The notes beneath the pieces are model-generated. The model was not told the origin of the DNA and did no database searches. It saw only the letters and a program-made list of their open reading frames with translations. A stretch of 64,000 nt of DNA from an uncultured Planctomycetota bacterium (GTDB taxonomy: Bacteria; Planctomycetota; CAYMFW01). Made by a program: the position numbers and the translations under genes. The stretch covers positions 813 through 64,812 of the forward strand of contig CAYMFW010000002.1 of the NCBI GenBank assembly GCA_964389785.1, given 5' to 3'. This document shows, one piece after another, positions 6,601-47,357 of the stretch. Numbering within the stretch: position 1 is the stretch's first letter; every line of letters begins with the position of its first letter.

Positions 6601-6619
6601 GCTCCGGACGACGTGCCCG

Positions 6620-28519: not shown

Positions 28520-28541
28520 ATCCGATAGAAGCGCACAGACG

Positions 28542-28576
28542 GCCGCGCGGGCACACGCTCGCGCGGCTTTTTTATT
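28542..28576 (+). terminator. rho-independent terminator of the RRM gene
   Basis: gccgcgcg-ggcacacgct-cgcgcggc followed by ttttttatt: an 8-bp GC stem plus T run, 23 nt after the stop. Confidence 0.8.
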
Positions 28577-28596
28577 CCAATCTCCTTCCACAGGCG

Positions 28597-28784
28597 TTCT
28601 GAGATTTTCGAACACGGCGGGAGCGGGATACTCCTGAACGAGTTCGTGGTGAGACGAACGGGCCGAAGGCCCTTCCATAGTCCGTCGAACCGCGACCTCG
28701 GAGGCGCCATATCCGCATCCATGGCGCCGAGAATGAGTGAAGGGGTGTCCCGCTCCCGCATTCACGTGTTCGAAAATCTCAGAA
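28597..28784 (+). ncRNA. conserved structured element X, copy 1 (core 28617-28759 plus an extra 20-bp outer stem); candidate ncRNA or structured DNA repeat
   Basis: An 18-bp closing stem pairs 28617-28634 with 28742-28759. The internal blocks TGAACGAGTTCG, CGAACGGGC, GTCGAA, CCTCGGAGGCG and GCCGAGAATGAGTGAA are all shared with 63579-63723. The outer perfect 20-bp inverted repeat 28597-28616 / 28765-28784 overlaps the FadL-type gene stop codon. The strand call rests on two G-U pairs that form only in plus-sense RNA. Confidence 0.55.
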
Positions 28785-30077: not shown

Positions 30078-30230
30078 ACGGATTGTGCCGTATCTGTCTC
30101 CCCACGAACAGAGGAAGGGTACAGTGCTGAGGGGAGAAACACAAGACGCGTGAAAACGTGAGTCACCTTTCCGGGAGATGAACGCAAGATTCGTGATTGT
30201 GTGTCACCTTCGTGGTAGTATTAATGTACT

Positions 30231-33200
30231 ATGGGGAGCAGGACGATTGGGCGGCGCGTGGTCGTTGCATCGTGTGCCTTCCTTGCCGCCTGCGCCCTCA
30301 TCCTCTTCCCCTCCATCGTGCCCGGCTCCTTCGCCGATGAGCCGGCAGACGTACCCGGCATCGGCTCCGCCGCCCGCTACCTGACGGGAACCTTCCGCGA
30401 CAGGAACGGCAAGAGCATCGACAGGATGGTCGTGCCCGGACGCCGACCGCCGAAGGTGAAGATGGCCGTCGCGTCCGTGCCGCGGGGCATTGTCGCCCTC
30501 GGGGCGAACGGGCTGGCCGACGTTCCCGCCTTCGACTGGTCCTACGGGTGCTCCGCCACCTCGGCCGCGATGATGATGGGCTACTACGACAACCTGGATT
30601 ACACGAACATGTACACCGGACCGACCAACGGCGGGGTCTGCCCCATGAACAACTCCACCTGGGGCGACGGCGAGTGCCCGCTGAGCGCGACGCACCAGGG
30701 ATACGACGGCCGCGGCATCAAGGGCCACGTGGACGATTACTGGGTCTCATACGGGAGCCCGGCGACCGATCCGTGGGTCGGCAGCTGGGCGGAGCATACC
30801 CTGGGGGACTGCACCGGCGACTACATGGGCACCAACCAGTCGGAGCTGAACAACAGCGACGGGTCGACGACGTTCTACAACTATACGGACGGCGAGCCGC
30901 TGTACGACTACACCGCCTGTGAGCCCGACAGGAGAGACGGCTGTCACGGGATGCGGCTCTTCGCGGAGTCGCGCGGCTACTGGGTGGAGGAGAACTTCTC
31001 CCAGTACATCTACGGGTACGACGACAACACGAAGGGCTTCACCTTCGCCGATTACCAGGCCGAGATAGACGCCGGGCGGCCCGTCGTGATCCAGGTGGCC
31101 GGCCATTCGATGCTCGGCACCGGATACGACACGGATACCTCCCTGGTCTACCTGCACGACACGTGGGATCACAACTCCCATTCGATGACGTGGGCAGGCG
31201 AGTATTCCGGCATGGAACACTACGGCGTGGCCGTGATCCGGCTCGCCCCGGCGGCCAAGCTGTCCGTCGCGGACGTGCAGGTCGACGAGGGCGCGGGCAC
31301 CGCCACGGTGACGGTCACCATGACGGGAAAGAGCTGTCTCGCGGTCTCCGTCACCTACGCCACGTCCGACGACACCGCCACCGAGGGAAACGACTACACG
31401 GAGGCGACGGGGACCCTGACGTGGAGCGCCGGCACCAACGGCGACAGGACGTTTTCCGTGACGATCGCCGAGGACGCGGTGTCCGAAGGAAACGAAACGG
31501 TGAGCATAACCCTGTCCGGCGCGCAGAACACGCTGATAGAGGACGGAAGCGCCGTGCTCACCATCCTGGACAACGAGAGCCCGGACATGGTGGTCGATCC
31601 GGTGTCCGGCCTTACCACCACGGAGGCGGGAGGTACCGACACCTTCACCATCGTGCTCGACACCAAGCCCTCCCACGACGTGACGATACCCCTTTCCAGC
31701 TCGAACCCGGACGAGGGAACGGTGAGCCCCGCATCCGTCACGTTCACCCCCGGCAACTGGGACACCGCCAGGACGGTGACGGTCACGGGCGTGGATGACG
31801 ACGCGGACGACGATAATGTCGCGTACACCGTCATCACCGGCGCCGCGACCAGCTCCGACGCCGGCTACGACGGAGTCGATCCGGACGACGTGTCCGTGAC
31901 CAATAACGACAACGATACCGCCGGCATCACGGTCAGCCCCACCGGCGGGCTTCAGACGACGGAGACCCTGGGAATCGCCACGTTCACGATAGTGCTGGCG
32001 ACCGCGCCGACACACAACGTGACGATAGCGCTCACCACCTCGGACGATACGGAGGGGACTGTGTCCCCCGCGTCCGTTACGTTCGTCCCGGGAGAGTGGA
32101 ACGACCCGAAAACGGTGACGGTGACGGGGGTCGACGACGTGCAGGTCGACGGCCCCGTCGGCTACAACATCGAAACCGCGGCCGCCGTCAGCGACGACGC
32201 GAAATACTCCGGCATCGACCCGGACGACGTGTCCGTGACGAACACGGACAACGACACCCCCGGCATCACCGTGACGCCCACGAGCGGGCTGACGACCACC
32301 GAGGCGGAGGGCACCGCGACCTTCACCATAGTGCTCCACACACAGCCGACCCACGACGTGACGATAGCGCTTTCCAGTTCGAACACCGACGAGGGAACGG
32401 TCTCTCCGGCCTCCGTGACGCTCACGTCCGGTAACTGGGACACGCCCAGGACGGTGACGGTGACCGGCGTGGGCGAAGACATCGACGACGGGGACGCCGC
32501 GTATACGATAGTCACGGCCGCCGCGGAGAGTGACGATCTCGTTTACCACGGCGTGAATCCCGATGACGTGTCCGTCACGAATATCGACGACGACACCGCG
32601 GGCGTGACGGTAGACCCCGCGTCCGGCCTTACCACGACGGAGGCGGGAGCGTTCGACACGTGTACGATCGTCCTGGACTCCGAGCCGACCGCCGACGTGA
32701 CGATACCCCTTTCCAGCTCGAACGCGGACGAGGGAACGGTGAGCCCCGCGTCCGTCACCTTCACTTCCGGCAACTGGGATACCGCGAAGACGATAACGGT
32801 GACCGGAGTGGGCGATTCGATCGACGACGGCGACGTCTCCTATCATATAGTCACCGGCGCCGCGACGAGCGGCGATGGAAAATACTCGGGAATGGACGCG
32901 GAAGACCCGTCGGTTACGAACACGGACGACGACACGGCCGGCGTCACCGTGTCCCCGACGTCCGGCCTGGTGACGAGCGAAGCCTCGGGCGGCGCCGGCT
33001 TCACGGTGGTGCTCACGAGCGAGCCGACCCACGACGTGACGATACCGCTTTCCAGCTCCGACGCGACGGAGGGAACGGTATCCCCCTCTTCCGTGACCTT
33101 CACTTCCGCCGACTGGGACCAGGCGAAGCCGGTGTCGGTGCAGGGCGTGAACGACGACGTGGATGACGGAAACGTGGGGTACACGATAACCATCGGCCCG

Positions 33201-36200
33201 GTGACGAGCGATGACGCGACGTACGCCGCGATCGACCCCGACGACGTATCGGTCGTCAATAACGACGACGACACCGCCGGCGTGACCGTCGCGCCCGTAT
33301 CCGGGCTGGTCACCTCGGAGGGCGGGGCAACCGACTCGTTCACGGTGGTACTGACGAGCGAGCCGACGGACGACGTGACGATAACGTTTGTCAGCTCGGA
33401 CGTGACGGAGGGGACCGTCTCGCCCGGAGCGGTGACCTTTACCGCCGGCAGCTGGGATGAAGCGGTCCCGATAACGGTAACCGGCGTGAACGACGACATG
33501 GCGGACGGCGATGTCTCCTACAGCATACTCGTCGCCGCCGGAAGCGCCGACGGCACATACGCCGCCATCGATCCGGCCGACGTATCGGTCACCAACGACG
33601 ACAACGACATGCCGGGAATAACGGTGACCCCGTCGGACGGCCTGGTCACCTCCGAAGGCGGCGGCACCGCCGAGTTCACGATAACGCTCAATACCCGTCC
33701 GGGAGAAAACGTGACGATCAGCCTGGACACCTCTGACTCCGGCGAGGGGATCGTATCGCCGGCGTCCTGTACGTTCACGCCGGGCACCTGGAATAACCCC
33801 AAGACGGTGACGGTCACCGGCGTGAACGACGACGTGGACGACGGGGACGCGGCCTACCAGGTGCTCACCGCCGCGACGAGCGGTGACCCCGACTACGACG
33901 GCATCGACACGCTGGACGCGTCCGTGACGAATACGGACGACGACACCGCCGGCGTGACGGTGACCCCCACGGAGGGCCTGACGACCACGGAGGCGGAGGG
34001 CTTCGCCGAGTTCACGGTGGTGCTGGACAGCGAGCCGCTCGACTGGGTGGAGATCACCTTCGGCAGCTCCGACTACAGCGAGGGCTGGGTGGCGCCCGAC
34101 GCGATCTACTTCAGCCCCGGTGATTGGAGCACGCCCAAGACGGTGTGCATCGTCGGTGTGGACGACGACGTGGACGAGGGCGACGTGACGTATACCGCCA
34201 TTGTGGACCCGGCGGGCAGCAACGACCAGACGTACCACGGCATAGACCCGGCGGACGTCTCGGTGACGAACATCGACGACGACACGGCCGGCCTCTCCAT
34301 CAGTCCCACCGGGGGGCTGGTGACCACGGAGGCGGGCGGCACCGCGACCTTCGTCGTCACGATGGCCAGCGAGCCGACGTCGGCGGTGACGATCGACCTG
34401 ACGAGCACGGACGAGTCGGAGGGCCGGGTGAGCCCCACTCCGCTCGTATTCATGGCCGCGAACTGGAGCAAGACCCACACGGTGACGATCACGGGGCAGG
34501 ACGACGCCGTCGCCGACGGCACCGTGGCGTTCCAGGTGATAACGGACGCCGCCGTCAGCGACGATCCGCTCTACAGCGGGACAGACCTCGACGACGTGGA
34601 CGTCACCAATGACGACAACGAGGTACCCGGCGTAACGATAAATCCGACCGGCGGACTGACAACCACCGAGGCGGGCGGCTTCGCCGAATTCAGCGTATCG
34701 CTCGGATCGGAGCCAGCGGCGAGCGTCACCGTCGGGTTCTCCGTTTCGGACCCGTCGGAGGGCCAGGTGACGCCGGCGGAGGTGATCTTCACGAACCAGA
34801 ACTGGGATACGGTGCGGACGGTGACGGTGACCGGTATCGACGACGACGCGGACGACGGCGACGCGGGCTATAGCGTGGTGTCCGGCGCCGTGGTAAGCGC
34901 GGACCCGGTGTACGACGGCATAGACCCGTCCGACGTGTCGGTGACGAATACCGACGACGACACCGCCGGCATAACGGTCACCCCCACCGAGGGGCTGGTG
35001 ACCACGGAGACCGGGGGAACGGCAGCGTTCACCGTGGTGCTGACGAGCCGTCCGGGCGGCGACGTGACGATCGGCGCGGTCAGCTCGGACCTCGACGAGG
35101 GAACGGTCAGCCCTTCGTCCCTGGTGTTTTCCGACACCACCTGGGACGAGCCGCAGACGGTGACCGTGACGGGAGTGAACGATGCCCTGATAGACGGTCC
35201 GGTTCCCTTCAGCGTGGTTCTCAGCCCGGCGGTCAGCGCCGATGAGGGCTACGACGGGATCGATCCGCCCGACGTCGCGGTAACGAACGCGGACAACGAC
35301 TCTCCCGGCATAACGGTCAGCCCGGTATCCGGCCTGGTCACCACGGAGGCGGGAGGCACCGCAACGTTCAGCGTCGTCCTCAATACGATGCCCACCGCGA
35401 GCGTCGAGGTCGGGCTCTCCAGCTCCGATACCGGCGAAGGAACGGTCTCGCCGGAAACGGTAACCATCACGGCCGCCGGATGGAACGTTCCCGCGATAGT
35501 AACGGTGACCGGTATCGACGACGCGGTGGACGACGGCGACATCGCCTTCACGATAGTGACGGCCGCCGCGGTCAGCGCGGACGGCGACTACGACGGCCGG
35601 GACCCGTCCGACGTCGACGTAACGAATGCCGATGATGATGAGCTCCCCACGATCAGCTTCGACGCGCCGTCGTCGAGAAGCCCCGAATCCGATTCGTTTC
35701 CGGCTCTCACCGTCTCCCTGAGCGCCGCGTATGCGCTTCCGGTGACGGTCGAGTGCGCGGTGACGGGCGGCACGGCGGACGAGGGAACCGACTTCGTTCT
35801 CCCGGGCGGCACGCTGACGTTCGCGCCGGGCGAGACCGTCGCGACCGTTCCCCTGACGGTGACCGACGACGCATTCGACGAGCCGGACGAGACGCTGGAG
35901 ATAGCCATATTCGACCCGGTGAACGCGGCACTGGGCGCGACGCGCTCACATACCTGTACCCTGGGAGATGACGACGACGTGCCGACGGTCCAGTTCCATT
36001 CCCCGATTTCCGAAGCCGACGAAGCGTGCGGTACCGCCCATATCAACGTGACGCTCTCTTCCGTTTCAGGAAAGACGGTGACCGTCGCGTATTCGGCCGC
36101 CGGAGGCACCGCGGAAGCGGGAGCCGACTACGTGCTCAACGGCGGCGCGCTGTCGTTCGCGCCCGGGGAAACGACCGCGGGTATTTCCCTCACCGTCACG

Positions 36201-37652
36201 GACGACGCGCTGTGCGATTCCGGCGAGACGGTGATCGTGCGGCTGTCCGGCCCGGTCAGCGCCGCGCTCGGCACGGACGACTATCACACCTGCGAGCTGA
36301 ACGACGAGGACCTGGACGGGGACGGGCTGTCGGACGACTGGGAGAACGCGTATCTGGGCGGAACGGACGCCGGCCCGGATGACGATGGCGACAATGACGG
36401 GGCGTCGAACGGCGACGAGAGCGACGCGGGGTCCGACCCCTCCGATCCGGATACGGACGACGACGGCGTCTATGATGGAAGCGACGACTTCCCGACCGAC
36501 CCGGACGAACAGACGGACACGGACGGTGACGGCGTCGGCAACAACCTGGACACCGACGACGACAACGACGGCGTCGAGGACGGAGAGGACGCGTTCCCGA
36601 CGGACCCGGGCGAGCAGACGGACACGGACGGTGACGGCACCGGCAACAACGCGGACACGGACGACGACGATGACGGGGTCTCCGACGAACGGGAAGGAGA
36701 GATCGGAACGAATCCTCTCGATCCCGATACGGACGGGGACGGCACGATCGATTCCGGCGCTGGAACCGACTCCGACGGGGACGGCATCGTGGACGACGCG
36801 GACGACGAGGACCTGGTGCCGATAGAGGACTCCGACACGGACGGTGACGGCACGCCGAACCGCGACGACGAAGACGACGACGGCGACGGCATTCCGGACG
36901 TATCGGACGAATTCCCGTACGACACCGATAACGACGGCCTGCTGAACGGCGCCGACGACGACGACGACAACGACGGCATCGCGGACGCGATCGACGACTA
37001 CCCGATGGACACCGACAACGACGGGCTTGACAACGCCGCCGACGAGGACGACGACGGCGACGGAGTGGCCGACGTGATAGAAGCGGAGCTGGGAACCGAC
37101 CGGCTCATCGGCACGGGGGACGACGCTCCCGACATTGCGCTGCCGGAACCCGTGACGATCGATCCGACGATACCCGGCACCGTCACGTACGACTACTCCG
37201 GGCTCGAGGGCTACACGTGGGCCACGTCAATCCTGTTCGTGTACCGGGCCCAGGAGCTTACCGGGACGCTCGCCCCCATCGTCAGCATTCCGAAGCCGGA
37301 CGAAGACGCGGACGCGGACGTGCCCGGCGGCTACATGGTTGCCGGCGCCGTCTTCGACATAATCGGAGAGATAGCTTCGGGACAGACCGTCCTGCTCCCG
37401 CTTCCCCTGCCGGACGAGCTCAGGGACCGGGGCCTGACCGAAGAGGACGTTGTCGTGCAGATGTTCGACGGCGAAACGTGGCAGGACGAGGGAACGGTTA
37501 TCAGTGTCGCCGACGGCGTGGTGACGACGGAGGTCTCCCACTTCTCCCGCTGGAGAATCCTGGTGCCGGCACCCGCCGGTTCGAGCGGAGGCGGCGGCGG
37601 CTGTTTCCTGCGATCCGCCGGAGGGGCTTTCTTTTCCCGCAACCAGGACTGA
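30231..37652 (+). CDS. giant secreted adhesin-like protein: papain-like (C39-like) N-domain, Calx-beta domains, 12 tandem ~113-aa repeats, thrombospondin-type-3 Ca-binding repeats
   Basis: 2473 aa with a signal peptide. FDWSYGCSATSAAMMMGYYD (Cys) ... VAGHSMLGTGYD (His) form a papain-like pair. The Calx-beta pattern ..VTYATSDDTATEGNDYTEATGTLTW..G....F.V.I..D...E.NE.. appears at aa ~345-450 and twice near aa 1810-2020. The Asp-rich DTDGDGVGNNLDTDDDNDGV repeats span aa ~2030-2290. Confidence 0.85.
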   Translation: MGSRTIGRRVVVASCAFLAACALILFPSIVPGSFADEPADVPGIGSAARYLTGTFRDRNGKSIDRMVVPGRRPPKVKMAVASVPRGIVALGANGLADVPAFDWSYGCSATSAAMMMGYYDNLDYTNMYTGPTNGGVCPMNNSTWGDGECPLSATHQGYDGRGIKGHVDDYWVSYGSPATDPWVGSWAEHTLGDCTGDYMGTNQSELNNSDGSTTFYNYTDGEPLYDYTACEPDRRDGCHGMRLFAESRGYWVEENFSQYIYGYDDNTKGFTFADYQAEIDAGRPVVIQVAGHSMLGTGYDTDTSLVYLHDTWDHNSHSMTWAGEYSGMEHYGVAVIRLAPAAKLSVADVQVDEGAGTATVTVTMTGKSCLAVSVTYATSDDTATEGNDYTEATGTLTWSAGTNGDRTFSVTIAEDAVSEGNETVSITLSGAQNTLIEDGSAVLTILDNESPDMVVDPVSGLTTTEAGGTDTFTIVLDTKPSHDVTIPLSSSNPDEGTVSPASVTFTPGNWDTARTVTVTGVDDDADDDNVAYTVITGAATSSDAGYDGVDPDDVSVTNNDNDTAGITVSPTGGLQTTETLGIATFTIVLATAPTHNVTIALTTSDDTEGTVSPASVTFVPGEWNDPKTVTVTGVDDVQVDGPVGYNIETAAAVSDDAKYSGIDPDDVSVTNTDNDTPGITVTPTSGLTTTEAEGTATFTIVLHTQPTHDVTIALSSSNTDEGTVSPASVTLTSGNWDTPRTVTVTGVGEDIDDGDAAYTIVTAAAESDDLVYHGVNPDDVSVTNIDDDTAGVTVDPASGLTTTEAGAFDTCTIVLDSEPTADVTIPLSSSNADEGTVSPASVTFTSGNWDTAKTITVTGVGDSIDDGDVSYHIVTGAATSGDGKYSGMDAEDPSVTNTDDDTAGVTVSPTSGLVTSEASGGAGFTVVLTSEPTHDVTIPLSSSDATEGTVSPSSVTFTSADWDQAKPVSVQGVNDDVDDGNVGYTITIGPVTSDDATYAAIDPDDVSVVNNDDDTAGVTVAPVSGLVTSEGGATDSFTVVLTSEPTDDVTITFVSSDVTEGTVSPGAVTFTAGSWDEAVPITVTGVNDDMADGDVSYSILVAAGSADGTYAAIDPADVSVTNDDNDMPGITVTPSDGLVTSEGGGTAEFTITLNTRPGENVTISLDTSDSGEGIVSPASCTFTPGTWNNPKTVTVTGVNDDVDDGDAAYQVLTAATSGDPDYDGIDTLDASVTNTDDDTAGVTVTPTEGLTTTEAEGFAEFTVVLDSEPLDWVEITFGSSDYSEGWVAPDAIYFSPGDWSTPKTVCIVGVDDDVDEGDVTYTAIVDPAGSNDQTYHGIDPADVSVTNIDDDTAGLSISPTGGLVTTEAGGTATFVVTMASEPTSAVTIDLTSTDESEGRVSPTPLVFMAANWSKTHTVTITGQDDAVADGTVAFQVITDAAVSDDPLYSGTDLDDVDVTNDDNEVPGVTINPTGGLTTTEAGGFAEFSVSLGSEPAASVTVGFSVSDPSEGQVTPAEVIFTNQNWDTVRTVTVTGIDDDADDGDAGYSVVSGAVVSADPVYDGIDPSDVSVTNTDDDTAGITVTPTEGLVTTETGGTAAFTVVLTSRPGGDVTIGAVSSDLDEGTVSPSSLVFSDTTWDEPQTVTVTGVNDALIDGPVPFSVVLSPAVSADEGYDGIDPPDVAVTNADNDSPGITVSPVSGLVTTEAGGTATFSVVLNTMPTASVEVGLSSSDTGEGTVSPETVTITAAGWNVPAIVTVTGIDDAVDDGDIAFTIVTAAAVSADGDYDGRDPSDVDVTNADDDELPTISFDAPSSRSPESDSFPALTVSLSAAYALPVTVECAVTGGTADEGTDFVLPGGTLTFAPGETVATVPLTVTDDAFDEPDETLEIAIFDPVNAALGATRSHTCTLGDDDDVPTVQFHSPISEADEACGTAHINVTLSSVSGKTVTVAYSAAGGTAEAGADYVLNGGALSFAPGETTAGISLTVTDDALCDSGETVIVRLSGPVSAALGTDDYHTCELNDEDLDGDGLSDDWENAYLGGTDAGPDDDGDNDGASNGDESDAGSDPSDPDTDDDGVYDGSDDFPTDPDEQTDTDGDGVGNNLDTDDDNDGVEDGEDAFPTDPGEQTDTDGDGTGNNADTDDDDDGVSDEREGEIGTNPLDPDTDGDGTIDSGAGTDSDGDGIVDDADDEDLVPIEDSDTDGDGTPNRDDEDDDGDGIPDVSDEFPYDTDNDGLLNGADDDDDNDGIADAIDDYPMDTDNDGLDNAADEDDDGDGVADVIEAELGTDRLIGTGDDAPDIALPEPVTIDPTIPGTVTYDYSGLEGYTWATSILFVYRAQELTGTLAPIVSIPKPDEDADADVPGGYMVAGAVFDIIGEIASGQTVLLPLPLPDELRDRGLTEEDVVVQMFDGETWQDEGTVISVADGVVTTEVSHFSRWRILVPAPAGSSGGGGGCFLRSAGGAFFSRNQD
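31581..35642 (+). repeat. 12 tandem coding repeats (~339 bp / ~113 aa each) inside the giant gene
   Basis: The unit is (P/A)G(I/V)TV.P..GL.T(T/S)E.GG.A.F...L...P...V.I.L.SSD..EG.VSP..V.F....W...(K/R)TVTVTG(V/I)(D/N)D...DG...Y.(I/V)......S.D..Y.G.DP.DV.VTN.D(D/N)D. I counted 12 consecutive units in the translation. Confidence 0.9.
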
Positions 37653-37662
37653 CACACCGGAA

Positions 37663-39372
37663 ATGAACAGCAACGCGACTGCAGATCGGTCCCCGTCACA
37701 GTCGATTCACCTCCTCATCCTCTGCCTCATTCTGATCGTGTACATGGCCGCCTCCCGGGCCGCCCTGATGTCGTCACCGTGGATGCCCCGGATGATCCTG
37801 GTGATGGCTCTTGTCGTCGCGGCGCTGGGCGCCGCGGCCCTGCTGAGCTTCCGGAGAACGCTCGCGGAACGGGTGGACGCCTGGATCCGACACCCGTCCC
37901 CCCTGCCGGTGCTGCTGCTCGCCCCCTGCGTGCTCGTCGCGGCGCGTGTGGCCCCGACGATCACGCTGCGCGCGTGTCTGACCCTGGGGATCTGGGCGGC
38001 GTTCGCGCGGGGGTATCTTTCCTTCGGGTCCCGCGGCACCCGCGCGGCCTGGCTGGCCGTTCTCGCGCTGGCGGTGCTGGTCCGCGTCGCCCTCATCGCG
38101 GGGCTCCCCCGGCCGCTGTGGTATCCGGACACGCCGTCGTACCTGGCCGGGGTGGACGAGTATCTCTCCGGCGGCCCCCTCACCTTCAACCCGCATCGAA
38201 TGCCCGGCTATTCCATCTACGCCCTCGTTCTCCTGCGCCTGGGCGGATACCCCGGGTATCCGCTGCTCTCTCACGCGCTGACTCTCGGGATCGCCTGGGC
38301 GGCCGGCCGGGTGGTGCGCCGCACGGATGGTGAGACGGCCGGCTGGCTGGTCTTCACCGCCCTCGCGCTCTCTCCCCACGCGGTGATATATGCCCATTCA
38401 CTGCTCAGCGAGGCGCTCTTCATCCCTCTGATTGCGGTCTACGCCCTTCTCGTCCGGACGCAGTTTGCCGATCGTGAGATCGAGAAGCCGCTTCACCGGC
38501 TCCTCGGCGCGGCAGGTCTCGGGCTGGTCACCGCGGCGGCCGTCCTCACCCGGCCGGGCGCGATCCTTCTCATCCCCGTCGGCGCGGGAGCGGCACTGCT
38601 TCGCCGCTGGCGGTGGCCCCGCCTGGCGGTCCTGATCGCGACGGCGTCGATCCCCGTCCTTCTGTGGATGGCGCACCAGAAGCAGGAGCACGGCGTGTTC
38701 CGTCTGACGGCGGCCGGCAGCTACGCCCTCTTCGGCACCACCGCACATCTCATCGAGAGCGATTCCCCGGGACACGAAGAGCTGAAGGCGGAGATGCGGG
38801 ACGCCATCGCCGCGCACAACGCCGCGCATTCCTGCTGGGCCCCCGATTACGAGTGGCTGCTCTACCAGGGGCCGCTGAAGAACCCGGCGTTCGAGTCGCT
38901 CTCCCCCCGGGAGCAGGACCGGGCCCTCTTCGACGTGGCCGTGCAGGCCCTCCGGCGCCATCCGTTCCGCTATATCCAGCGCTCCCTCTTTCCCCTCTGG
39001 CGCTTCCTCATTCAGCCGACGAATATCCAGGTGCTGGCCCTTCACGCGTACGCCCCCGGCGAGAATCTCTTTTTCGAGATCGCCGCGCACCAGATGACGC
39101 GCGGCTACTCCCTGTTCCCGCTGGAGCTTTTCGAACACTGGCTGCTCGCGATCGCCGCCGCGGCCATCGCCCTGCGCACCGGCCGGGAGCGCGGGCCGCT
39201 GCTGACGCTCGCCGCCGCCGCGTTCGGCTTCGTGATCCTGTCATGCGCGCTGAACACCGCCGTGACCCGCTACCAGCTCCAGTGGTTTCCCCTGCTGCTC
39301 GTCGCCTTCGCGGTGCTCGCCGGGGACTGGAGCGGGCATCGTTGCATTTCCGACGACGCGCGCCTAGAATGA
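37663..39372 (+). CDS. polytopic membrane protein, GT-C-fold (ArnT/PMT_2-like) glycosyltransferase candidate
   Basis: 569 aa, starting 10 nt after the giant gene. It has at least 10 predicted hydrophobic helices, an early loop ..LWYPDTPSYL.. and a large later soluble loop, which is the general architecture of GT-C enzymes. No catalytic motif was verified. Confidence 0.5.
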   Translation: MNSNATADRSPSQSIHLLILCLILIVYMAASRAALMSSPWMPRMILVMALVVAALGAAALLSFRRTLAERVDAWIRHPSPLPVLLLAPCVLVAARVAPTITLRACLTLGIWAAFARGYLSFGSRGTRAAWLAVLALAVLVRVALIAGLPRPLWYPDTPSYLAGVDEYLSGGPLTFNPHRMPGYSIYALVLLRLGGYPGYPLLSHALTLGIAWAAGRVVRRTDGETAGWLVFTALALSPHAVIYAHSLLSEALFIPLIAVYALLVRTQFADREIEKPLHRLLGAAGLGLVTAAAVLTRPGAILLIPVGAGAALLRRWRWPRLAVLIATASIPVLLWMAHQKQEHGVFRLTAAGSYALFGTTAHLIESDSPGHEELKAEMRDAIAAHNAAHSCWAPDYEWLLYQGPLKNPAFESLSPREQDRALFDVAVQALRRHPFRYIQRSLFPLWRFLIQPTNIQVLALHAYAPGENLFFEIAAHQMTRGYSLFPLELFEHWLLAIAAAAIALRTGRERGPLLTLAAAAFGFVILSCALNTAVTRYQLQWFPLLLVAFAVLAGDWSGHRCISDDARLE

Positions 39373-39379
39373 AGCGCAT

Positions 39380-40327
39380 ATGTCGCTGACATCTCCCATT
39401 CACTACGACTCGTTCGACAGCATCACGCTCGGCACCGAGTGCCGGTACCTGGTGTACCTGCCCCCGGCGTACGAGGCCGAGCCGGACCGGCGCTTCCCGG
39501 TGGTCTTCTGGCTACACGGGGCCAACGGCCGGCCGCCGGCCGCGCTTCCCATGATGCTTCGGCTGGAGCTGGAGATCGCCCGCGGCACCGCCCCGCAGAT
39601 GATAGTCATCTCGCCCGACGGCCTGGGAAACACATGGTGGTGCGACACGAAGGACGGCGCCCGCCCGGCCGAGACGGTGCTGGTGAGGGAGCTGGTGCCC
39701 CGCGTGGACGCGACGTGGCGCACGACAGGCGCACGGGACGGGCGCGCGATAGAGGGCTTCTCGATGGGCGGCTTCGGGGCCGCGCATATCGCGTTCAAGT
39801 ATCCGGAGCTCTTCCGCGCGGTGTCCATCGCAAGCGGGGCGCTCCACACGCCGGAGCAGGTCCGCAAGGAACGGGCGGGGCGTTTCGTGGAGGTCTTCGG
39901 CGGCGACATGGACTACTGCACGGCGGAGTCGCCCTGGACGCTCGCGGAGAAGAACGCGGACACGATACGGGAACGGCTCGCGATACGCATCAGCGTCGGG
40001 CAGGACGACGAGCTCCGCCCCAAGAACGAGGCCCTCAGCATGCTGCTGTCCGACCTCGACATCGAATACACGTTCGGGCTTGTCGAGAGCGAGGAGCACA
40101 AGCTCGGCCAGCTGTACGAACGCATCGAGGACCCGTTCTCCTTCTACGCGGAGGTCTTCGCGGCGCACGCGGGGGAGATCGAGCCGGCACGGAACACCCG
40201 GATGCTGGGGAATTTCACGGACCGCCTGCGGGACGGCATGCGCGACGGGAGCCTGCACAACGACGCCGCGGGAGTCGAGGCGGTCAACTCACTCGTCGAG
40301 GAATTCAGACAGTCACTCGAATTCTGA
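39380..40327 (+). CDS. alpha/beta-hydrolase 'putative esterase' family (esterase D / feruloyl-esterase-like)
   Basis: ..YLVYLPPAYEAEPDRRFPVVFWLHG.. and the nucleophile elbow GFSMGG are typical of the PF00756-type esterases. Confidence 0.75.
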   Translation: MSLTSPIHYDSFDSITLGTECRYLVYLPPAYEAEPDRRFPVVFWLHGANGRPPAALPMMLRLELEIARGTAPQMIVISPDGLGNTWWCDTKDGARPAETVLVRELVPRVDATWRTTGARDGRAIEGFSMGGFGAAHIAFKYPELFRAVSIASGALHTPEQVRKERAGRFVEVFGGDMDYCTAESPWTLAEKNADTIRERLAIRISVGQDDELRPKNEALSMLLSDLDIEYTFGLVESEEHKLGQLYERIEDPFSFYAEVFAAHAGEIEPARNTRMLGNFTDRLRDGMRDGSLHNDAAGVEAVNSLVEEFRQSLEF

Positions 40328-40336
40328 GGAGGAGAC

Positions 40337-42259
40337 ATGTCGTACGGACACATGCTGAGGTGCTGGATATTCGTTCTCGCCTGCACCGCCGCATTCGCCG
40401 GAGCGGCTCCGGACAGGGTCGTCATCGAGGACTTCGAGGAAGAGAAGCCGCCCCTGTCGCCGAACCAGGACGGCGGGACGCCGCCTGCGTTTTCGATCGC
40501 CGACAGGGACGCGAAGAGCGGAAAGAAGTGCCTCCGGCTCGAGTACCGCAATCCAGACAAGGGCTACGGCAACCTCCGGATGCCGGTCTGGCTCTCCGGG
40601 GCCGAGGAGGCGGTGGAGCTGTGGGTCCGGCGCGAGAAGGCGGAAGGGAAGGCGACGCTTCATATATGGCTCTTCGAGGAGGACGGCGACGCGTGGCTCT
40701 CCCCGGGCACCGCGCTGACAACGCTCCAGAAGGGCTGGCAGGCCGTCCGCCTGAAGCTCTCCGATTTCAGGTACGACCCCCGTGGGGACAAGGTGAAGAG
40801 CATCGGCAGCGTCAGCAGGATGCTTCTCGGCTGTAACTACGCGGACTTCGTGATATTCGTCGACGGCATCACGTTCGTCGGCAAGGACCTCGTCGCAGGG
40901 AGGAAGAAGACGATGGAAGAGGTGGAGATCTCGTGCGAGGTGGACTCGAAAACGACGCTCTGCAGTGACTTCATCGGCATCGGCGCGGAGTGGAACCCGT
41001 ACGTGTGGCTGGACGTTCCCGAGGAGCACTGGAAATCGATAGAAGAGCGCATCCGCTGGATGAAGCTGCCGGCGGCCCGCATCCTGATGCTCGCCAGGTG
41101 GTGCGTGCGGGAAGGCGGCACGTTCGACTGGGAGAGCCGCGAGATGAAGATACTCTACCGGCACCTGGATATCTGCCAGAAGGAAGGCATCACCGTGTTC
41201 CTCACCGACTGGGGGTGCGTGCGCGACTGGGTGAAGGCCCCCGGCATCGCGAACACGGCCGACCCGAAGTACGCCGGGACGATCGGCGCGTACCTGGACC
41301 ACCTGATCAACAAGAAGGGATATTCGTGCATCAGGTACTTCATCCTGGTCAACGAGCCGAACTGCGAGGCCGGCGGCTACGAGGACTGGAAGAAGGGCGT
41401 GCTGAACGTCGCGAAGGAATTGAAGGCGAGAAAGCTCGATGGGCACGTGACGATCGCCGGCTCCGACGCGAGCCAGGTGGACGGCACGTGGCACCGGAAC
41501 GCGGTGGACCAGCTCCAGGGGACGCTCGGGGCGTACGACCTGCACCTCTACGCCGGAGACGGCGAGGTGAAGGCGGGCCGGCTGGAGGGCCGGTGGCAGA
41601 ACCTGTGGGGATACGCGCTGGCGAAGGACCCGAAGGCGAAGGGCAAGCGCTTCGTCGTCGGCGAGGCGGGGCTGAACGACGGCGCGGTCCATCCGCGGGG
41701 AAACAACAACATCGACAGCTACCACTACGGGATATTCATGGCGGACTACGCGGTGCAGGCCGTTCGCGCGGGGAGCCATGCGGTGCTGGCGTGGATGCTC
41801 TGCGACAACTCCCACAAGGGCTTCTTCTGGGGCTGCTGGTCGAACAGCGAGAAGGGGCTGGAGCTCCGCCCGTGGTTCTACACCTGGTCGCTGCTCTCCC
41901 GGTATATCCCGCCCGGCTCGACCATCCACGCCGTGAAGCAGACCTCGTCCGCGCCGCCGGCGCACCCGGCGCAGGTGCGCATCCTCGCGGCCAAGGCCCC
42001 CGACGCGGGCGGGAAGAAAGGCGGCTGGACGTTCTGCGTCGTCAACCGCGACACCCGCCGGGAGGCCTCCGTGACGCTTCGCGTTCCCGGCGCGGGAACC
42101 GCGAAGCTCGCGCGCTACGTGTACAGGGAGAAGGTCCGGCGGACGGACACGCGCGGGTTCCCCGTCTCCGAGGCAACGGAGAGCGCCGACCTGACGAAGG
42201 GGCACGCGGTGACGTGCCCGAAGAACGCGGTGGTGATACTCACGTCGGTGGAACGATGA
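40337..42259 (+). CDS. secreted glycoside hydrolase: N-terminal CBM11/CIA30-like jelly-roll plus clan GH-A catalytic domain
   Basis: GAGGAGGAG RBS and a signal peptide. The N-terminal ..VVIEDFEEE...LRLEY...W..V.L.LSDF.. module is followed by LVNEPN (acid/base) and VVGEAG (nucleophile) in a (beta/alpha)8-like pattern. Confidence 0.65.
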   Translation: MSYGHMLRCWIFVLACTAAFAGAAPDRVVIEDFEEEKPPLSPNQDGGTPPAFSIADRDAKSGKKCLRLEYRNPDKGYGNLRMPVWLSGAEEAVELWVRREKAEGKATLHIWLFEEDGDAWLSPGTALTTLQKGWQAVRLKLSDFRYDPRGDKVKSIGSVSRMLLGCNYADFVIFVDGITFVGKDLVAGRKKTMEEVEISCEVDSKTTLCSDFIGIGAEWNPYVWLDVPEEHWKSIEERIRWMKLPAARILMLARWCVREGGTFDWESREMKILYRHLDICQKEGITVFLTDWGCVRDWVKAPGIANTADPKYAGTIGAYLDHLINKKGYSCIRYFILVNEPNCEAGGYEDWKKGVLNVAKELKARKLDGHVTIAGSDASQVDGTWHRNAVDQLQGTLGAYDLHLYAGDGEVKAGRLEGRWQNLWGYALAKDPKAKGKRFVVGEAGLNDGAVHPRGNNNIDSYHYGIFMADYAVQAVRAGSHAVLAWMLCDNSHKGFFWGCWSNSEKGLELRPWFYTWSLLSRYIPPGSTIHAVKQTSSAPPAHPAQVRILAAKAPDAGGKKGGWTFCVVNRDTRREASVTLRVPGAGTAKLARYVYREKVRRTDTRGFPVSEATESADLTKGHAVTCPKNAVVILTSVER

Positions 42260-42275
42260 GGTGCCGGGGAAGAAG

Positions 42276-43904
42276 ATGAAGTACCTGTTCCTGATCACCG
42301 CCGCGGCGCTCGCCGCCTTCGGCGCGGCGCTGTACCTCACCGAGCCGCAGGCCCGGAGCGAGGTGCCGGTGATCTACTGGGTGATCGACCCGGCCCCCGC
42401 GCGCCCGGAGCAGATCGCGCTGTACCACCGGTGGCTCATCAAGCACGGCCACGGAGAAAAATATGACATCACCACGATGGCGGAGCTGGATGTGTTCCGC
42501 CGGAAGAAGTGGACCCCCGCCGTGCGGGACGCCATAGAGAAGGGCAACCCGGACGGACCGAAGGTGTGGGACGCCCGCACGAACGCGGCCGACCTGCCGC
42601 TCAGCGTTACCGCCCCCGGCGCGGAGATGCGGGTGGACGCATCGAGCAACGACCTGAGCAAGAAGCTGATACAGGGCGTCTCCGGCGTCGCCGGGGACGT
42701 GCTCGAGGCGTATAACGGCGGGCAGCAGATGCAGTACTTCGCCGCGGCCGGGATGCTGGCCGACGTCACCGAGAGCGCGAAGAAGTACGGATTCGAGCCG
42801 GAGAAGACGTACGAGGCGCTCCGGCCGGCGCTCTTCTTCGAGGGGCGGCAGTACGCCTTCCCGCGCAACCCGGCTCAGACCATGTACTGGGTGAACAAGG
42901 CGACCTTCGAGAAGCACCAACAGCCGCTTCCCCCCTCCCGGTGGACGATCGAGGAGTTCGAGAAGCGCGGGAGGGAATTCGTGAAGGCGGCGAACCCGCC
43001 GGGCGCGCGGCGCAGGGTGTTCTTCGCCGACCGGGCGTTCGTCGTTGAGCTGCGCCGGGGCCTGGGGCTTTCGATGTTCAACGAGACGCTCACCCGGTGC
43101 ACGCTGGACGATCCGCGCAACGCCCGGGTGATGCGCCTGATCCACCAGTGGACGTACCAGGACCGGATACTCCCCAGCGCCGCCGATATGGCCGCGTTCG
43201 ACACCGAGGGCGGCTGGGGAGGGAAGTCGTTCCAGCTCTTCAAGAACGGGCAGTTCGCCATGTTCGCGAGCGGGCGCTGGGCGCTGATGCTCTTCCGCAA
43301 ATTCGGCGAGATGCAGCTCGCGGTCGCGGAGCCCCCCCACACCGGCATGCCGAACACCATACTGTCGGGCGGGCAGTCCACCGTGTTCCGGGGGTCGCGC
43401 CACCGGAAGTACGCGGAGCTCTTCCTGGCGTACATGGCCGACGAGGACTACAACATGCAGATCGTGCGCGACGGAGACGCCCTGCCGCCCAATCCCAAGT
43501 ACACCGACAGCGAGCTGTTCAGGCGCCCGCCGGACCATCCCAACGAATGGGGATGCCACGAGCCGTGGGCGAAGGCGGCGCACGAGATAGGCACCGTGGC
43601 CAGCTTCAGTCCGTTCGTGCTCCCCGTCGTCGCCGCCCGGTACGACGGAGTGTCACAGCAGGAGGTGATGAACGACCGCGCCACGGCGGAGGAGGCGGGA
43701 AAGACAGCCGCGGACCGGATCAACGGGGAGATACGGCGCACCCTCGCGGAAAGCGCGGAGCTGAGGAAGAGATACGCGGAGCTCACCGGCCTGCAGGAGA
43801 AGATCGACGCGTACCGCGCGGAGGGCCGGAAGGTCCCTCTGGACTGGATAAGGAACCCGTTCCACCGCAGGTGGTATCTGGAGAAGGGATGGGTGGCACA
43901 ATGA
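42276..43904 (+). CDS. ABC transporter extracellular solute-binding protein (sugar, family 1-like, long form)
   Basis: MKYLFLITAAALAAFGAALYL is the anchor (an alternative GTG start is at 42261). ..FPRNPAQTMYWVNKATFEK.., ..LFKNGQFAMFASGRWAL.. are typical of sugar SBPs. Confidence 0.7.
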   Translation: MKYLFLITAAALAAFGAALYLTEPQARSEVPVIYWVIDPAPARPEQIALYHRWLIKHGHGEKYDITTMAELDVFRRKKWTPAVRDAIEKGNPDGPKVWDARTNAADLPLSVTAPGAEMRVDASSNDLSKKLIQGVSGVAGDVLEAYNGGQQMQYFAAAGMLADVTESAKKYGFEPEKTYEALRPALFFEGRQYAFPRNPAQTMYWVNKATFEKHQQPLPPSRWTIEEFEKRGREFVKAANPPGARRRVFFADRAFVVELRRGLGLSMFNETLTRCTLDDPRNARVMRLIHQWTYQDRILPSAADMAAFDTEGGWGGKSFQLFKNGQFAMFASGRWALMLFRKFGEMQLAVAEPPHTGMPNTILSGGQSTVFRGSRHRKYAELFLAYMADEDYNMQIVRDGDALPPNPKYTDSELFRRPPDHPNEWGCHEPWAKAAHEIGTVASFSPFVLPVVAARYDGVSQQEVMNDRATAEEAGKTAADRINGEIRRTLAESAELRKRYAELTGLQEKIDAYRAEGRKVPLDWIRNPFHRRWYLEKGWVAQ

Positions 43905-45385
43905 TCTCCCGCGGCGGCCGCGAAGCGAGCCGGATGGCGAAAGGGCTGGCGTTCATCGCCCCGAACATCGCGGGCTTCCTGGTCTTCACCCTGTTTCCAC
44001 TCGTGTTCAGCTTCGCCATGGCGTTCACCAACTGGGACATCCAGCGGCACAACATGTACAACAACGAGGCACTGCGCTTCGTGGGGCTCGAGAACCTGGT
44101 CCGGCTGTTCGGGGACCCCGACTTCTTCAAGTACCTCGGCAACACGTTCTTCCTGATGATGGGAATGCCGTTCGGCATCGCGGGGAGCCTGGGCGCCGCG
44201 CTGCTTCTCAGCCGGGACCTCTCCGCGGGCGGCAGGCGCGTGTGGGCGTACGTGCTTCTGTGCGTGTCGCTCACCGTCGGTATCGGGGCGCTCATCGCGG
44301 CGGGGGCGGGAGCGACGGCGATGACGATACTCGTATGCGGGGTCGCCGGCGCCATACTTGTCACCGGCTCCCTGGGGGGAAAGACCGTCTACCGGACCCT
44401 CTTCTACTTCCCCCACTTCACCGCGGGGGTGGCGACGTTCCTGCTGTGGAAGAAACTCTACAACCCGCACACCGGTCCCTTCAACAACGCTCTCAGACCC
44501 CTGCTGGAAAGCTTCGGTGGCGCGGTGAACGCCCTTCCCGCGGGCCTGGTGCGGAGCGGCGCGTGGGCGTGCGCGGCTCTGGCGGCCGCGCTGGCGCTGA
44601 TCGGCGCCCGGAACCTGCGGAGGGCGTGGCTCGACGGGGAGATGGGGACCGTCTCCGTGTCGATCGGCACGTCGCTCCTGTGCGTCCCGGCGGTCCTCGC
44701 CGTTCCCTGGGCGCCGGACGCGGTGGTGCGACTCATCATCCCCGCGGCCGCGCTGGCGGCGGCGGCGCTGATCGTCCGGACCCTCGCCGCGCGGCGGGAG
44801 TTCGCCTGCGCGCTCGACGAGGAGCTGGGACACGCGGTGATCTCGTGCGGCGGCATCATGACCGCCCAGCTCGCGCTTCTGGGGCTCGGCATCGTGCTCT
44901 TCCGCCTGCCGGAGATGAGCGCGGCGGGCCTGGCGCCCCCCGAGTGGCTGACGCAGTATCACTGGTCGAAGCCGTCCCTCATGATCATGGGATTGTGGGC
45001 GGCCGTCGGCTCGAACAGCATGCTGCTGTATCTGGCCGGCATATCCAACATCCCGCCGGAGCTCTACGAGGCGGCCGACGTGGACGGCGCGTCGCCGCTC
45101 CAGCGCTTCCTGCACATCACCTGGCCCCAGCTCGCGCCCATCACGTTCTTCATACTCATCATGGCAATCATCCACGGCCTGCAGGGCGGCTTCGAGATGG
45201 CCCGCACCATGACGCAGGGCGGGCCCGCCGGCGCCACCACGACGCTCAGCTACTACGTCTACACCGAGGGGTTCGAGACCGGGCGGCTGGGATACGCCTC
45301 GGCCGTCGCGTGGGCGCTCTTCGCGCTGGTGTTCACCGTCACCGTGTTCAACTGGAAGTTCGGAAACAGATATGTCAACGACTGA
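43901..45385 (+). CDS. carbohydrate ABC transporter permease with ~200-aa extra transmembrane insertion
   Basis: ATG at 43901 overlaps the upstream stop (ATGA). The N-terminus FIAPNIAGFLVFTLFPLVFSF and the C-terminal EAA loop YEAADVDGASPLQRFLHITWPQL fit the MalF/UgpA type. 494 aa versus ~290 typical. Confidence 0.8.
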   Translation: MISRGGREASRMAKGLAFIAPNIAGFLVFTLFPLVFSFAMAFTNWDIQRHNMYNNEALRFVGLENLVRLFGDPDFFKYLGNTFFLMMGMPFGIAGSLGAALLLSRDLSAGGRRVWAYVLLCVSLTVGIGALIAAGAGATAMTILVCGVAGAILVTGSLGGKTVYRTLFYFPHFTAGVATFLLWKKLYNPHTGPFNNALRPLLESFGGAVNALPAGLVRSGAWACAALAAALALIGARNLRRAWLDGEMGTVSVSIGTSLLCVPAVLAVPWAPDAVVRLIIPAAALAAAALIVRTLAARREFACALDEELGHAVISCGGIMTAQLALLGLGIVLFRLPEMSAAGLAPPEWLTQYHWSKPSLMIMGLWAAVGSNSMLLYLAGISNIPPELYEAADVDGASPLQRFLHITWPQLAPITFFILIMAIIHGLQGGFEMARTMTQGGPAGATTTLSYYVYTEGFETGRLGYASAVAWALFALVFTVTVFNWKFGNRYVND

Positions 45386-46205
45386 GAAACAGGTGATACC
45401 CGCCACGCTGCTGCACTACGTGCTGGCGGCCGCGAGCCTGACGCTGGTGCTGCCCTTCGTCTGGATGGTGCTCACCAGCCTGAAGACCCTCGACGAGGTG
45501 GGCCTCGAGACGTGGCTGCCCCGCGCCGCGCAGTGGCACAACTACCCCGACGTGTTCGGGGTCGAGGGCATCCAGTTCGGCCGGTGGTACCTGAACAGCA
45601 TATTCGTCGCCGCGTGCGTGACGTTCCTGCAGGTTCTGACCAGCTCGATGGCCGCGTTCAGCTTTTCGCGGCTCCGCTGGAAGGGACGCGACAAAGTGTT
45701 CCTGCTGTACCTGGGCACGATGATGCTGCCCGGGCTCGTGATGATGATCCCGAATTACCAGATCATGATAAAGCTGGGGCTGGTGGACACGTACGCCGGG
45801 CTCGTCATACCGGCGGCGTTCAGCGCGTTCGGCACGTTCCTGCTCCGGCAGTTCATGCTGGGCATCCCCACCTCCCTCGACGAGGCCGCCGAGATCGACG
45901 GCGCGAGCACCTGGCAGGTGTTCTGGGAGGTGATACTGCCGCTCTCCCGGCCGGGGCTGATCACGCTCGCGATCTTTACCTTCATAGGCAACTACCACAG
46001 CTTCTTCTGGCCGCTCGTGATGATGAAGACCACCCACCGCTACACCCTGCCGATAGGGCTGCTCTTCTTCGACAACAGCCAGGGGCAGGAGACCTGCCTG
46101 CTGATGGCGGCGATCACGATGTCGGTGGTGCCGATGATCCTGATATTCGTCTTCCTGCAGAGACACCTGGTCCGCGGCATCCAGCTCGGCGCGGTGAAGG
46201 GGTAG
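45372..46205 (+). CDS. carbohydrate ABC transporter permease (MalG/UgpE-like)
   Basis: 277 aa with EAA loop DEAAEIDGASTWQVFWEVILPLSRPG. It overlaps the upstream gene by 14 nt. Confidence 0.9.
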   Translation: MSTTEKQVIPATLLHYVLAAASLTLVLPFVWMVLTSLKTLDEVGLETWLPRAAQWHNYPDVFGVEGIQFGRWYLNSIFVAACVTFLQVLTSSMAAFSFSRLRWKGRDKVFLLYLGTMMLPGLVMMIPNYQIMIKLGLVDTYAGLVIPAAFSAFGTFLLRQFMLGIPTSLDEAAEIDGASTWQVFWEVILPLSRPGLITLAIFTFIGNYHSFFWPLVMMKTTHRYTLPIGLLFFDNSQGQETCLLMAAITMSVVPMILIFVFLQRHLVRGIQLGAVKG

Positions 46206-46247
46206 ACGGAATACCCGCAAAGAGCCCGTGACGTCACCCCCCACCCC

Positions 46248-46275
46248 TTGACACCACACTGATTACGGGTATACT
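46248..46275 (+). promoter_or_regulatory. sigma70-like promoter TTGACA-16-TATACT
   Basis: -35 at 46248-46253 and -10 at 46270-46275, 48 nt upstream of the DUF1559 gene. A GTGACGTCAC palindrome at 46228-46237 lies just upstream. Confidence 0.6.
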
Positions 46276-46323
46276 TCTACGGGGTGAGCGTGCGTTGTCC
46301 GATAACACTATTGGTGACTGAAT

Positions 46324-47289: not shown

Positions 47290-47293
47290 GGGC

Positions 47294-47322
47294 TTGACGT
47301 CCGCCGGACGCCCGGGTATAGT
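47294..47322 (+). promoter_or_regulatory. near-consensus sigma70 promoter TTGACG-17-TATAGT of the LacI-family gene
   Basis: -35 at 47294-47299 and -10 at 47317-47322 with 17-nt spacing. Confidence 0.7.
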
Positions 47323-47325
47323 AAG

Positions 47326-47347
47326 CCAATTAAAACGTTTTAATTGG
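47326..47347. promoter_or_regulatory. perfect 22-bp palindrome CCAATTAAAACGTTTTAATTGG, candidate LacI-family operator
   Basis: The sequence is its own reverse complement with a central CG, as in LacI/GalR operators. It starts 4 nt after the -10 box, so it covers the predicted transcription start. Confidence 0.65.
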
Positions 47348-47357
47348 CCAATAGCCC

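Follow-up and report, generated by a model that had tools for sequence, protein, structure and literature searches.

We analysed seven genes at positions 30231-46205 of a 64,000-nucleotide stretch of DNA from an uncultured Planctomycetota bacterium; the whole stretch is called the window below. The sequence comes from a salt-marsh metagenome; DNA metagenome runs contain it, and a search of RNA runs found none that does. We read the seven genes as one operon-like unit, in which an ordinary ATP-binding cassette (ABC)-based glycan-utilisation module is joined to a lineage-specific upstream pair. Our rough probability for this reading is 0.55. It draws on gene content, spacing, protein folds, catalytic residues and the pattern of conservation. 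The genes, in order, are as follows.

30231-37652, + strand, giant protein, 2473 amino acids (aa)
37663-39372, + strand, GT-C-like protein, 569 aa
39380-40327, + strand, CE1-like esterase, 315 aa
40337-42259, + strand, glycoside hydrolase (GH), 640 aa
42276-43904, + strand, solute-binding protein (SBP), 542 aa, or 547 aa with a GTG start at 42261
43901-45385, + strand, permease 1, 494 aa
45372-46205, + strand, permease 2, 277 aa

Seven tightly packed genes on one strand

The junctions are, in order, gaps of 10, 7, 9 and 16 nucleotides (nt), the last falling to 1 nt with the GTG start, and then overlaps of 4 and 14 nt. The initial annotation had described the same seven + strand open reading frames (ORFs), and its coordinates and junction lengths are exact throughout. 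A coding signature is present in 7/7 genes, with a GC content at third codon positions of 0.87-0.94; the GC content of the window is ~65% throughout. Other same-strand neighbours in the window are spaced by 68-180 nt (25784>25869, 27101>27234, 46205>46324, 47289>47358 and 49397>49578). The six consecutive junctions of ≤16 nt described here form the window's longest tight run. As had been suggested, such packing on one strand is compatible with a single transcript.

An independent Logan contig (run X1, 11,261 nt) spans 34305-45565 with 0 differences. Hence, from the 3' part of the giant gene as far as permease 1, the junctions are no assembly artefact. In the repeat region of the giant gene Logan contigs fragment, as repeats would predict. 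The DNA contigs of four salt-marsh runs contained no population variant without the GT-C gene. Contig "joints" in those runs were disregarded, as they lay in the repeat region or rested on 20-30-nt side matches. Exact-sequence look-ups of the window GH and GT-C proteins returned no contig on record.

Promoter and terminator signals were sought within and around the block. The relevant features are listed below.

28779-30077, - strand, gene for a FadL-type outer-membrane protein
30078-30230, no strand, divergent intergenic region of 153 nt between the FadL-type gene and the giant gene
46248-46275, + strand, sigma-70-like promoter match (TTGACA-16-TATACT, 11/12), start of the next unit
47294-47322, + strand, sigma-70-like promoter match (10/12), intergenic, before a LacI-family regulator gene

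Our consensus scan for sigma-70-like sites found none on the + strand within 30231-46205. The best two sites of 28000-47500 were those at 46248 and 47294, both intergenic. Because these are correctly placed before the next two genes, the scan has some meaning in this genome. The strong match at 46248 agrees with the promoter already claimed for that position. An extended -10 element (TGgTAGTAT, 30213-30221) had been put forward as the start of the transcript. That sequence is present, but it is a weak candidate; the -10 match is 4/6, the best -35 match is 3/6 and the scan did not report the site. The sequence GTCACCTT occurs twice upstream of the giant gene (30162-30169 and 30203-30210). It was rejected as an operator motif since it is not enriched in the window (3 copies against 1.18 expected, with 14/100 shuffles reaching 3).

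Terminator-like matches numbered 11, compared with 7.3 ± 3.0 in shuffled sequences, and so were not in excess. Inside the cluster, the + strand matches are only three overlapping 5-bp stems at 40471-40488. When the sequence around each junction was folded, no U-tract followed any hairpin. Of the + strand hairpins in the cluster, the strongest (42070-42112, ~18 bp, -29.7 kcal/mol) falls near the 3' end of the GH coding sequence, ~150 nt ahead of the SBP gene. We considered it as an internal processing or terminator element and rejected it as a terminator; it lies in a coding region, lacks a U-tract and is conserved in its inner stem only in the related locus L004, described below. A strong Shine-Dalgarno sequence (GAGGAGGAG) was found before the GH gene only. 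In sum, the scans found neither a consensus promoter nor a credible terminator in the block, and they did find clear intergenic promoters just downstream; this supports the operon-like reading. The packing makes it likely that the upstream pair is read through from the same promoter.

A CUT1-type importer with a hydrolase and an esterase

The SBP matches SBP_bac_8 and SBP_bac_1; among solved proteins, it is closest to Lmo0181 (E 1e-15) and to an arabino-oligosaccharide-binding protein. By hydropathy, it has an N-terminal hydrophobic anchor without a lipobox Cys. Its C-terminus runs past the SBP fold match and ends charged (RKRYAELTGLQEKIDAYRAEGRK). Permease 1 is MalF/UgpA-like, with ~10 hydrophobic segments that include an Ala-rich insertion, and permease 2 is MalG/UgpE-like. 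Both have counterparts in L026, a locus from a Verrucomicrobiota metagenome-assembled genome (MAG). Permease 1 (494 aa) is 58% identical to its L026 counterpart (321 aa) across the C-terminal 139 aa, and permease 2 is 60% identical to the second L026 permease. Residues 333-494 are the only part of permease 1 that matches family models or the L026 protein; the rest includes an Ala/Gly-rich hydrophobic stretch. A family-1 SBP with two BPD_transp_1 permeases defines a CUT1 ABC carbohydrate importer, and the original call of an SBP and two permeases can be narrowed to this type. The ATPase gene noted as missing is indeed missing; the whole 64 kb contains no ABC ATPase motif.

The GH has four parts, all on the + strand.

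residues 1-23, + strand, signal peptide
40412-40882, + strand, N-terminal beta-sandwich, residues 26-182
40922-41911, + strand, (beta/alpha)8 catalytic domain, residues ~196-525
residues 526-640, + strand, C-terminal beta-sandwich

The AlphaFold2 (AF2) model of this protein has a pLDDT of 91.7. Using Foldseek, it was matched to GH51, GH30 and GH79 enzymes (E 1e-16 to 6e-21, 12-14% identity, probability 1.00). The catalytic residues E340 (in an NEP motif) and E443 (in GEAG) are invariant in 29 sequences. In the model, E340 follows strand 332-337 and E443 lies within strand 438-446. On this structural model, the protein is a glycoside hydrolase of the clan GH-A fold. It resembles the clan GH-A enzymes with a C-terminal beta-sandwich (GH30, GH51, GH79 and GH5) in its barrel, in the NEP acid/base Glu after strand 4, in the nucleophile Glu on strand 7 and in the appended beta-sandwich. 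It differs in being only 12-14% identical to any solved member. The window GH has no Pfam match, PF00150 (GH5) being found weakly in some homologues, and the PDB offered no usable sequence match.

The initial annotation had described this protein as a glycosidase bearing a carbohydrate-binding module (CBM). The glycosidase part stands, given the clan GH-A fold and the invariant Glu residues, but the CBM is tentative. Matches to CBM_11 were sub-threshold in 3/6 orthologous domains (E 6e-4 to 0.03, cut-off 27 bits), and the window's own N-terminal domain has no CBM_11 match.

The esterase matches PF00756 (E 1.3e-20) and has a GFSMGG motif. Its nearest solved relatives are ferulic acid esterases of CE1 (E 1e-17 to 2e-18). 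Hence, the earlier esterase call can be refined to CE1/feruloyl-esterase-like. Hydropathy revealed no signal peptide, a hydrophobic N-terminus being absent, and 39380 is the first possible start in the frame. The esterase is therefore predicted to be cytoplasmic, and probably acts after import. An extracellular degradation step by the esterase, as had been envisaged, is at odds with the absent signal peptide.

A glycan-catabolism island surrounds the cluster, with genes for GH141-like, PcRGLX-like, GH38 and WbsX-like proteins, a sugar kinase, an aldolase and LacI. This setting fits the 3' five genes as a conventional ABC-based glycan-utilisation unit. The closest known systems are the ABC-based polysaccharide utilisation loci (PULs), also called Gram-positive PULs, which have a CUT1 importer and an MsiK/MalK ATPase encoded elsewhere. 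The window shares with them one SBP_bac_1/8 protein, two MalF/MalG-like permeases, a secreted GH and a carbohydrate esterase on one strand, LacI next door and an ATPase that is not co-encoded. It differs in its diderm host, in a GH that falls in no Pfam family and in the giant gene, which encodes no carbohydrate-active enzyme (CAZyme), and the GT-C gene upstream.

A peptidase-like head on a predicted calcium-binding stalk

The giant protein is rich in Asp (14%), Thr (13%) and Gly (11%). Residues 1-35 form a Sec-type N-terminal signal peptide. The regions that follow are these.

30426-31250, + strand, C39-like (papain-fold) cysteine-peptidase head, residues ~66-340, Pfam PF13529
31257-31574, + strand, Calx-beta domain, residues 343-448, Pfam PF03160
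31584-35645, + strand, twelve tandem repeats of ~113 aa, residues 452-1805, Thr/Asp-rich and Ig/Calx-like
35646-36260, + strand, two further Calx-beta domains, residues ~1806-2010, with an NCBIfam caca stretch at 1912-2007
36288-37100, + strand, thrombospondin type 3 (TSP3)-like Ca-binding region, residues ~2020-2290, with 15 DxDxDG motifs
37128-37649, + strand, C-terminal globular domain and Gly-rich tail, VPAPAGS(S/G)GGGGGCF(L/V)RS.GG

The head scores 35.7 bits against PF13529 (Peptidase_C39_2), above the gathering cut-off of 24. Residues Cys107 (in WxxGCSAT), His292 and Asp313 are invariant in 18 sequences. Homologues of the head, at 53-68% identity, were found in >1200 proteins from Deltaproteobacteria, Dehalococcoidia, Methanospirareceae archaea and others. 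Their length is mostly 350-590 aa and their tails vary, with BACON, fn3, dockerin, PKD, cadherin-like or PEP-CTERM modules. The conservation of the head is unusually strong for a secreted domain, and the tail modules are freely exchanged. Compared with Peptidase_C39_2, the window head has the above-threshold match and the conserved Cys/His in common, and differs in its fusion to a ~2100-aa stalk. A PDB sequence search gave no usable solved relative of the head. Our literature search on Peptidase_C39_2 returned endolysin and genome surveys only, and nothing on this architecture.

In the stalk, PF03160 matches three stretches (E 7.6e-58 over the whole protein). The repeats keep a register in which G[IVL][TS][VI]xP recurs each 112-113 residues. 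The TSP3-like region has no Pfam match and was assigned by motif alone, from a regular-expression count. The C-terminal tail (37572-37649, VPAPAGSSGGGGGCFLRSAGG) is conserved in the related loci L004 and L087. It has no transmembrane helix and no match to known sorting-signal models in Pfam or NCBIfam; the tail may be an unrecognised processing or anchoring signal. Neither Pfam nor NCBIfam models for RTX, cohesin, dockerin or CBM domains matched the giant protein.

The domain matches and motifs portray the giant protein as a peptidase-like head on a long Ca-binding stalk. The label of adhesin in the initial annotation was a guess. The protein is not simply an adhesin, as its C39-like head is common to >1200 proteins with unrelated tails and contexts. 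Giant adhesins of the RTX/LapA type differ from it; here, the Sec-type signal peptide is N-terminal, the protein has no HemolysinCabind match and the flanks have no type I secretion system genes. A C39-plus-Calx-beta relative occurs in an unrelated context at locus L091. At 4072-8715 of this ENA contig the relative is split into many short ORFs, which probably reflects frameshifts in the long-read assembly of a further giant gene.

A remote GT-C-like membrane protein

The GT-C-like protein is polytopic (569 aa), and its AF2 model has a pLDDT of 83. It has no Pfam, NCBIfam or PDB sequence match, the PDB having been searched with the single sequence and a profile. In a word-based search of 5.8 billion proteins it retrieved itself only. 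In a full HMMER scan it retrieved 171 relatives. Two distant homologues (E ~1e-15 to 1e-17) pass the Pfam PMT_2 model. In Foldseek searches of the PDB, 18/20 top matches were GT-C enzymes or STT3-containing complexes, with a probability of ~1.0. These matches included ArnT (E 1.9e-4), STT3, AglB, PglB, AftB, ALG3/9/12 and Pmt. The GT-C call made at the outset is thus borne out by the remote homologues that pass PMT_2 and by the Foldseek matches. D156, R179 and R536 are invariant in the alignment, D156 in 35 sequences. D156 lies in a PDSxxY-like motif just past the fourth predicted hydrophobic segment (128-146).

Like the known GT-C glycosyltransferases (ArnT, PMT/PMT_2 and STT3/PglB/AglB), the protein is polytopic and all-helical, has an invariant Asp and has relatives encoded beside GT2 polyprenyl-phosphate glycosyltransferase-like genes. 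Unlike them, it has no large soluble C-terminal domain and no GT2 partner was identified near the window gene. Its closest homologues, P0122 and P0123, are each encoded directly 5' of a GT2 gene, amid GT4 and methyltransferase genes. Homologue contexts were seen at L089 2101-2400, L092 11985-12857 and L094 4120-4998. Clusters of GT4 and methyltransferase genes with a GT2 gene are the usual, envelope-glycan biosynthesis context of the family.

Conservation in relatives

Relatives of the GH were used to assess conservation of the arrangement. The loci, with GH identity to the window and gene context, are listed below.

L004 (ENA) and L087 (JGI), 76-83%, giant (75%)-esterase (74%)-GH-SBP (80%, L004 only)
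JGI 3300042731 contig, 63%, unrelated context
L090, 57%, unrelated context
L005, 54%, unrelated context
L001, 52%, unrelated context
L002, 47%, unrelated context
L026, 46%, ABC genes nearby
JGI 3300071358 contig, 43%, unrelated context

The seven-gene order, proposed for comparison with related genomes, is not kept. One lineage (74-83% aa identity) has giant-esterase-GH-SBP, without the GT-C gene and without the N-terminal domain of the GH. The block of L004 and L087 is still tight, its genes being separated by 46 nt and 10 nt and then overlapping by 4 nt. A metagenome scan with the esterase yielded two loci, of which one was informative.

The GT-C gene is absent from L004 and L087. The whole GT-C ORF is an insertion or deletion between the window (37653-39379) and this sister lineage (L004 4126-4171; L087 ~890-1008). 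The 46-nt spacer of L004 and L087 matches the last ~13 codons of the window GT-C ORF (RRCISADTRLE-stop versus HRCISDDARLE-stop). The GT-C gene is dispensable or recently acquired, and the pairing is young. In the GH of L004 and L087 the N-terminal beta-sandwich is missing and the signal peptide is fused straight to the catalytic part. At L004 5133-5230, in the 83%-identical GH, the signal peptide joins KKxxTMEEVEISCE. Full-length orthologues that are further removed (42-63% identity) do have the N-terminal domain.

Within GTDB, the closest relatives of the GH come from Planctomycetota MAGs (52-54%). In ~79 GTDB loci, no giant, GT-C or esterase gene was found near a GH homologue. In L026, from Verrucomicrobiota, the order is SBP, permease (58%), permease (60%), MalK ATPase, beta-helix protein, GH, an unknown gene and a WbsX-like gene. 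By gene order, L026 is an independent link between this GH and a transporter in a distant phylum.

Genomic neighbourhood

Downstream of the cluster lie the following genes.

46324-47289, prepilin-type N-methyl protein gene, directly downstream of the 46248 promoter match
47358-48329, LacI-family regulator gene, directly downstream of the 47294 promoter match
from 48345, Gfo/Idh/MocA oxidoreductase gene, 15 nt after the LacI gene

This LacI protein may regulate the adjacent cluster. The FadL-type outer-membrane protein and the prepilin-like proteins nearby indicate that the host is diderm. Genes for a beta-helix (GH141-like) protein, a WbsX-like protein, this GH family and a CUT1 importer occur together both in the window (6685-9411, 17511-18668 and 40337-42259) and in L026 (7449-9974, 9341-11431 and 12683-15082). 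This co-occurrence suggests a recurring gene set for one glycan class.

A model for the cluster and its alternatives

We infer from the observations above that the genes are co-transcribed, where the products act and the order of the steps. In this model, the secreted clan GH-A hydrolase, with an N-terminal beta-sandwich that is possibly CBM11-like, would cut polysaccharide outside the cytoplasm. The CUT1 SBP and the two permeases would import the oligosaccharides, powered by an ATPase encoded elsewhere. The cytoplasmic CE1-like esterase would act last, stripping acyl or feruloyl groups from the imported products. The upstream pair would be a lineage-specific addition, probably read through from the same promoter; it comprises the orphan GT-C protein and the giant secreted protein, in which a C39-like head precedes the Ca-binding repeats.

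Several points weigh against this model. GH orthologues at 42-63% identity never adjoin the esterase, giant or GT-C genes, and ABC genes were nearby in only 1 of ~79 GTDB loci, namely L026, plus 2 weak ones. The suggested extended -10 is a weak candidate, and a transcript started there would have a leader just a few nucleotides long. Promoters of other sigma factors, or ones buried in genes, are possible, and a single transcript is deduced only from spacing. For the GT-C model, the Foldseek TM-scores are low, at 0.30-0.37.

Some of the same evidence bears on the possibility that the adjacency is genome compaction, with neither function nor regulation in common. Here, the giant protein, with or without the GT-C protein, would be an envelope or surface unit, and the esterase, GH, SBP and permeases would be served by a buried promoter of their own. 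The GT-C family normally belongs to envelope-glycan biosynthesis clusters beside GT2 genes, the neighbours of this GT-C gene are undisturbed where it is missing, the link between the giant and catabolic genes is limited to one lineage and the strong Shine-Dalgarno sequence stands before the GH gene only. However, the scan that scores 10-11/12 at the next two intergenic regions found no + strand sigma-70-like site in 30231-46205, the 7-10 nt gaps are too short for a terminator and the junctions are without a U-tract hairpin. We regard two or more independent units as possible but doubtful.

The initial annotation had instead likened the cluster to a Bacteroidota PUL or a cellulosome. In that scheme, the giant protein would catch glycan at the cell surface, as a tether or adhesin, for the GH, esterase and importer expressed with it. 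In its favour, only 10 nt separate the giant gene from the genes downstream, the giant-esterase-GH-SBP adjacency has survived ~25% protein divergence and the giant protein is secreted and rich in the Calx-beta and TSP3-like modules typical of surface proteins. Like SusC/SusD PULs, the window clusters surface, degradative and import functions, but import is by ABC transport and a TonB-dependent SusC-like or SusD-like gene is lacking; neither Plug/TonB_dep_Rec nor SusD families matched the seven proteins or the ten nearest flanking genes. Like cellulosome scaffoldins, a very large secreted repeat protein is encoded beside a GH, but the repeats are Calx-beta-like or TSP3-like Ca-binding units, and no cohesin or dockerin Pfam match was found in the giant protein or the GH. 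The resemblance therefore fails on its defining parts, there being no SusC/D, cohesin, dockerin or other tethering component. Further, neither the giant protein nor the cluster has a carbohydrate-binding module, the sole enzymatic module, the peptidase-like head, recurs in >1200 proteins whose tails are unrelated, and the L091 relative lies in an unrelated context. No GH orthologue at ≤63% identity keeps the linkage, the esterase is predicted to be cytoplasmic and no outer-membrane anchoring signal was recognised. As one close relative alone shares the pairing, it looks like a local arrangement rather than a novel capture machine. Nothing about the giant protein suggests that it captures glycan; a mechanistic part in this is unsupported, and we consider this scheme unlikely.

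Two further proposals centre on the head. It could cleave the protein core of a glycoprotein or proteoglycan, while the GH, the esterase and the importer handled the glycan; on this view the giant protein would be a stalked enzyme, not an adhesin. Consistent with this, Cys107, His292 and Asp313 form an invariant triad, the head is strongly constrained and its gene lies in a cluster that also encodes a secreted GH and a sugar importer. Set against this are the location of most heads of this family away from CAZyme/ABC genes and a cluster with no peptide importer or further peptidase. We judge such a unit improbable. A more elaborate version, and marginally less probable again, has the giant Thr/Asp-rich protein glycosylated in the periplasm by the adjacent GT-C protein. 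The head, on a Ca-stiffened stalk, and the co-transcribed GH, esterase and CUT1 importer would then act on a glycoprotein or proteoglycan. If true, this would be a type of "glycoprotein utilisation locus" not described in PVC-like bacteria.

Implications

Returning to the operon-like reading, the cluster is an ABC-based CAZyme cluster of known kind, partly built from uncharacterised families. Three such families, for which the analysis gave good models or alignments, are its more useful by-products. One is a widespread clan GH-A hydrolase family that has no solved relative and no Pfam match, another is a GT-C subfamily missed by ordinary word-based searches and the third is a very strongly conserved C39-like secreted peptidase head in >1200 bacterial and archaeal proteins. 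If the seven genes are one transcript, they would be a compact case of uncultured glycan degraders outside Bacteroidota adding lineage-specific surface proteins to a standard ABC unit.

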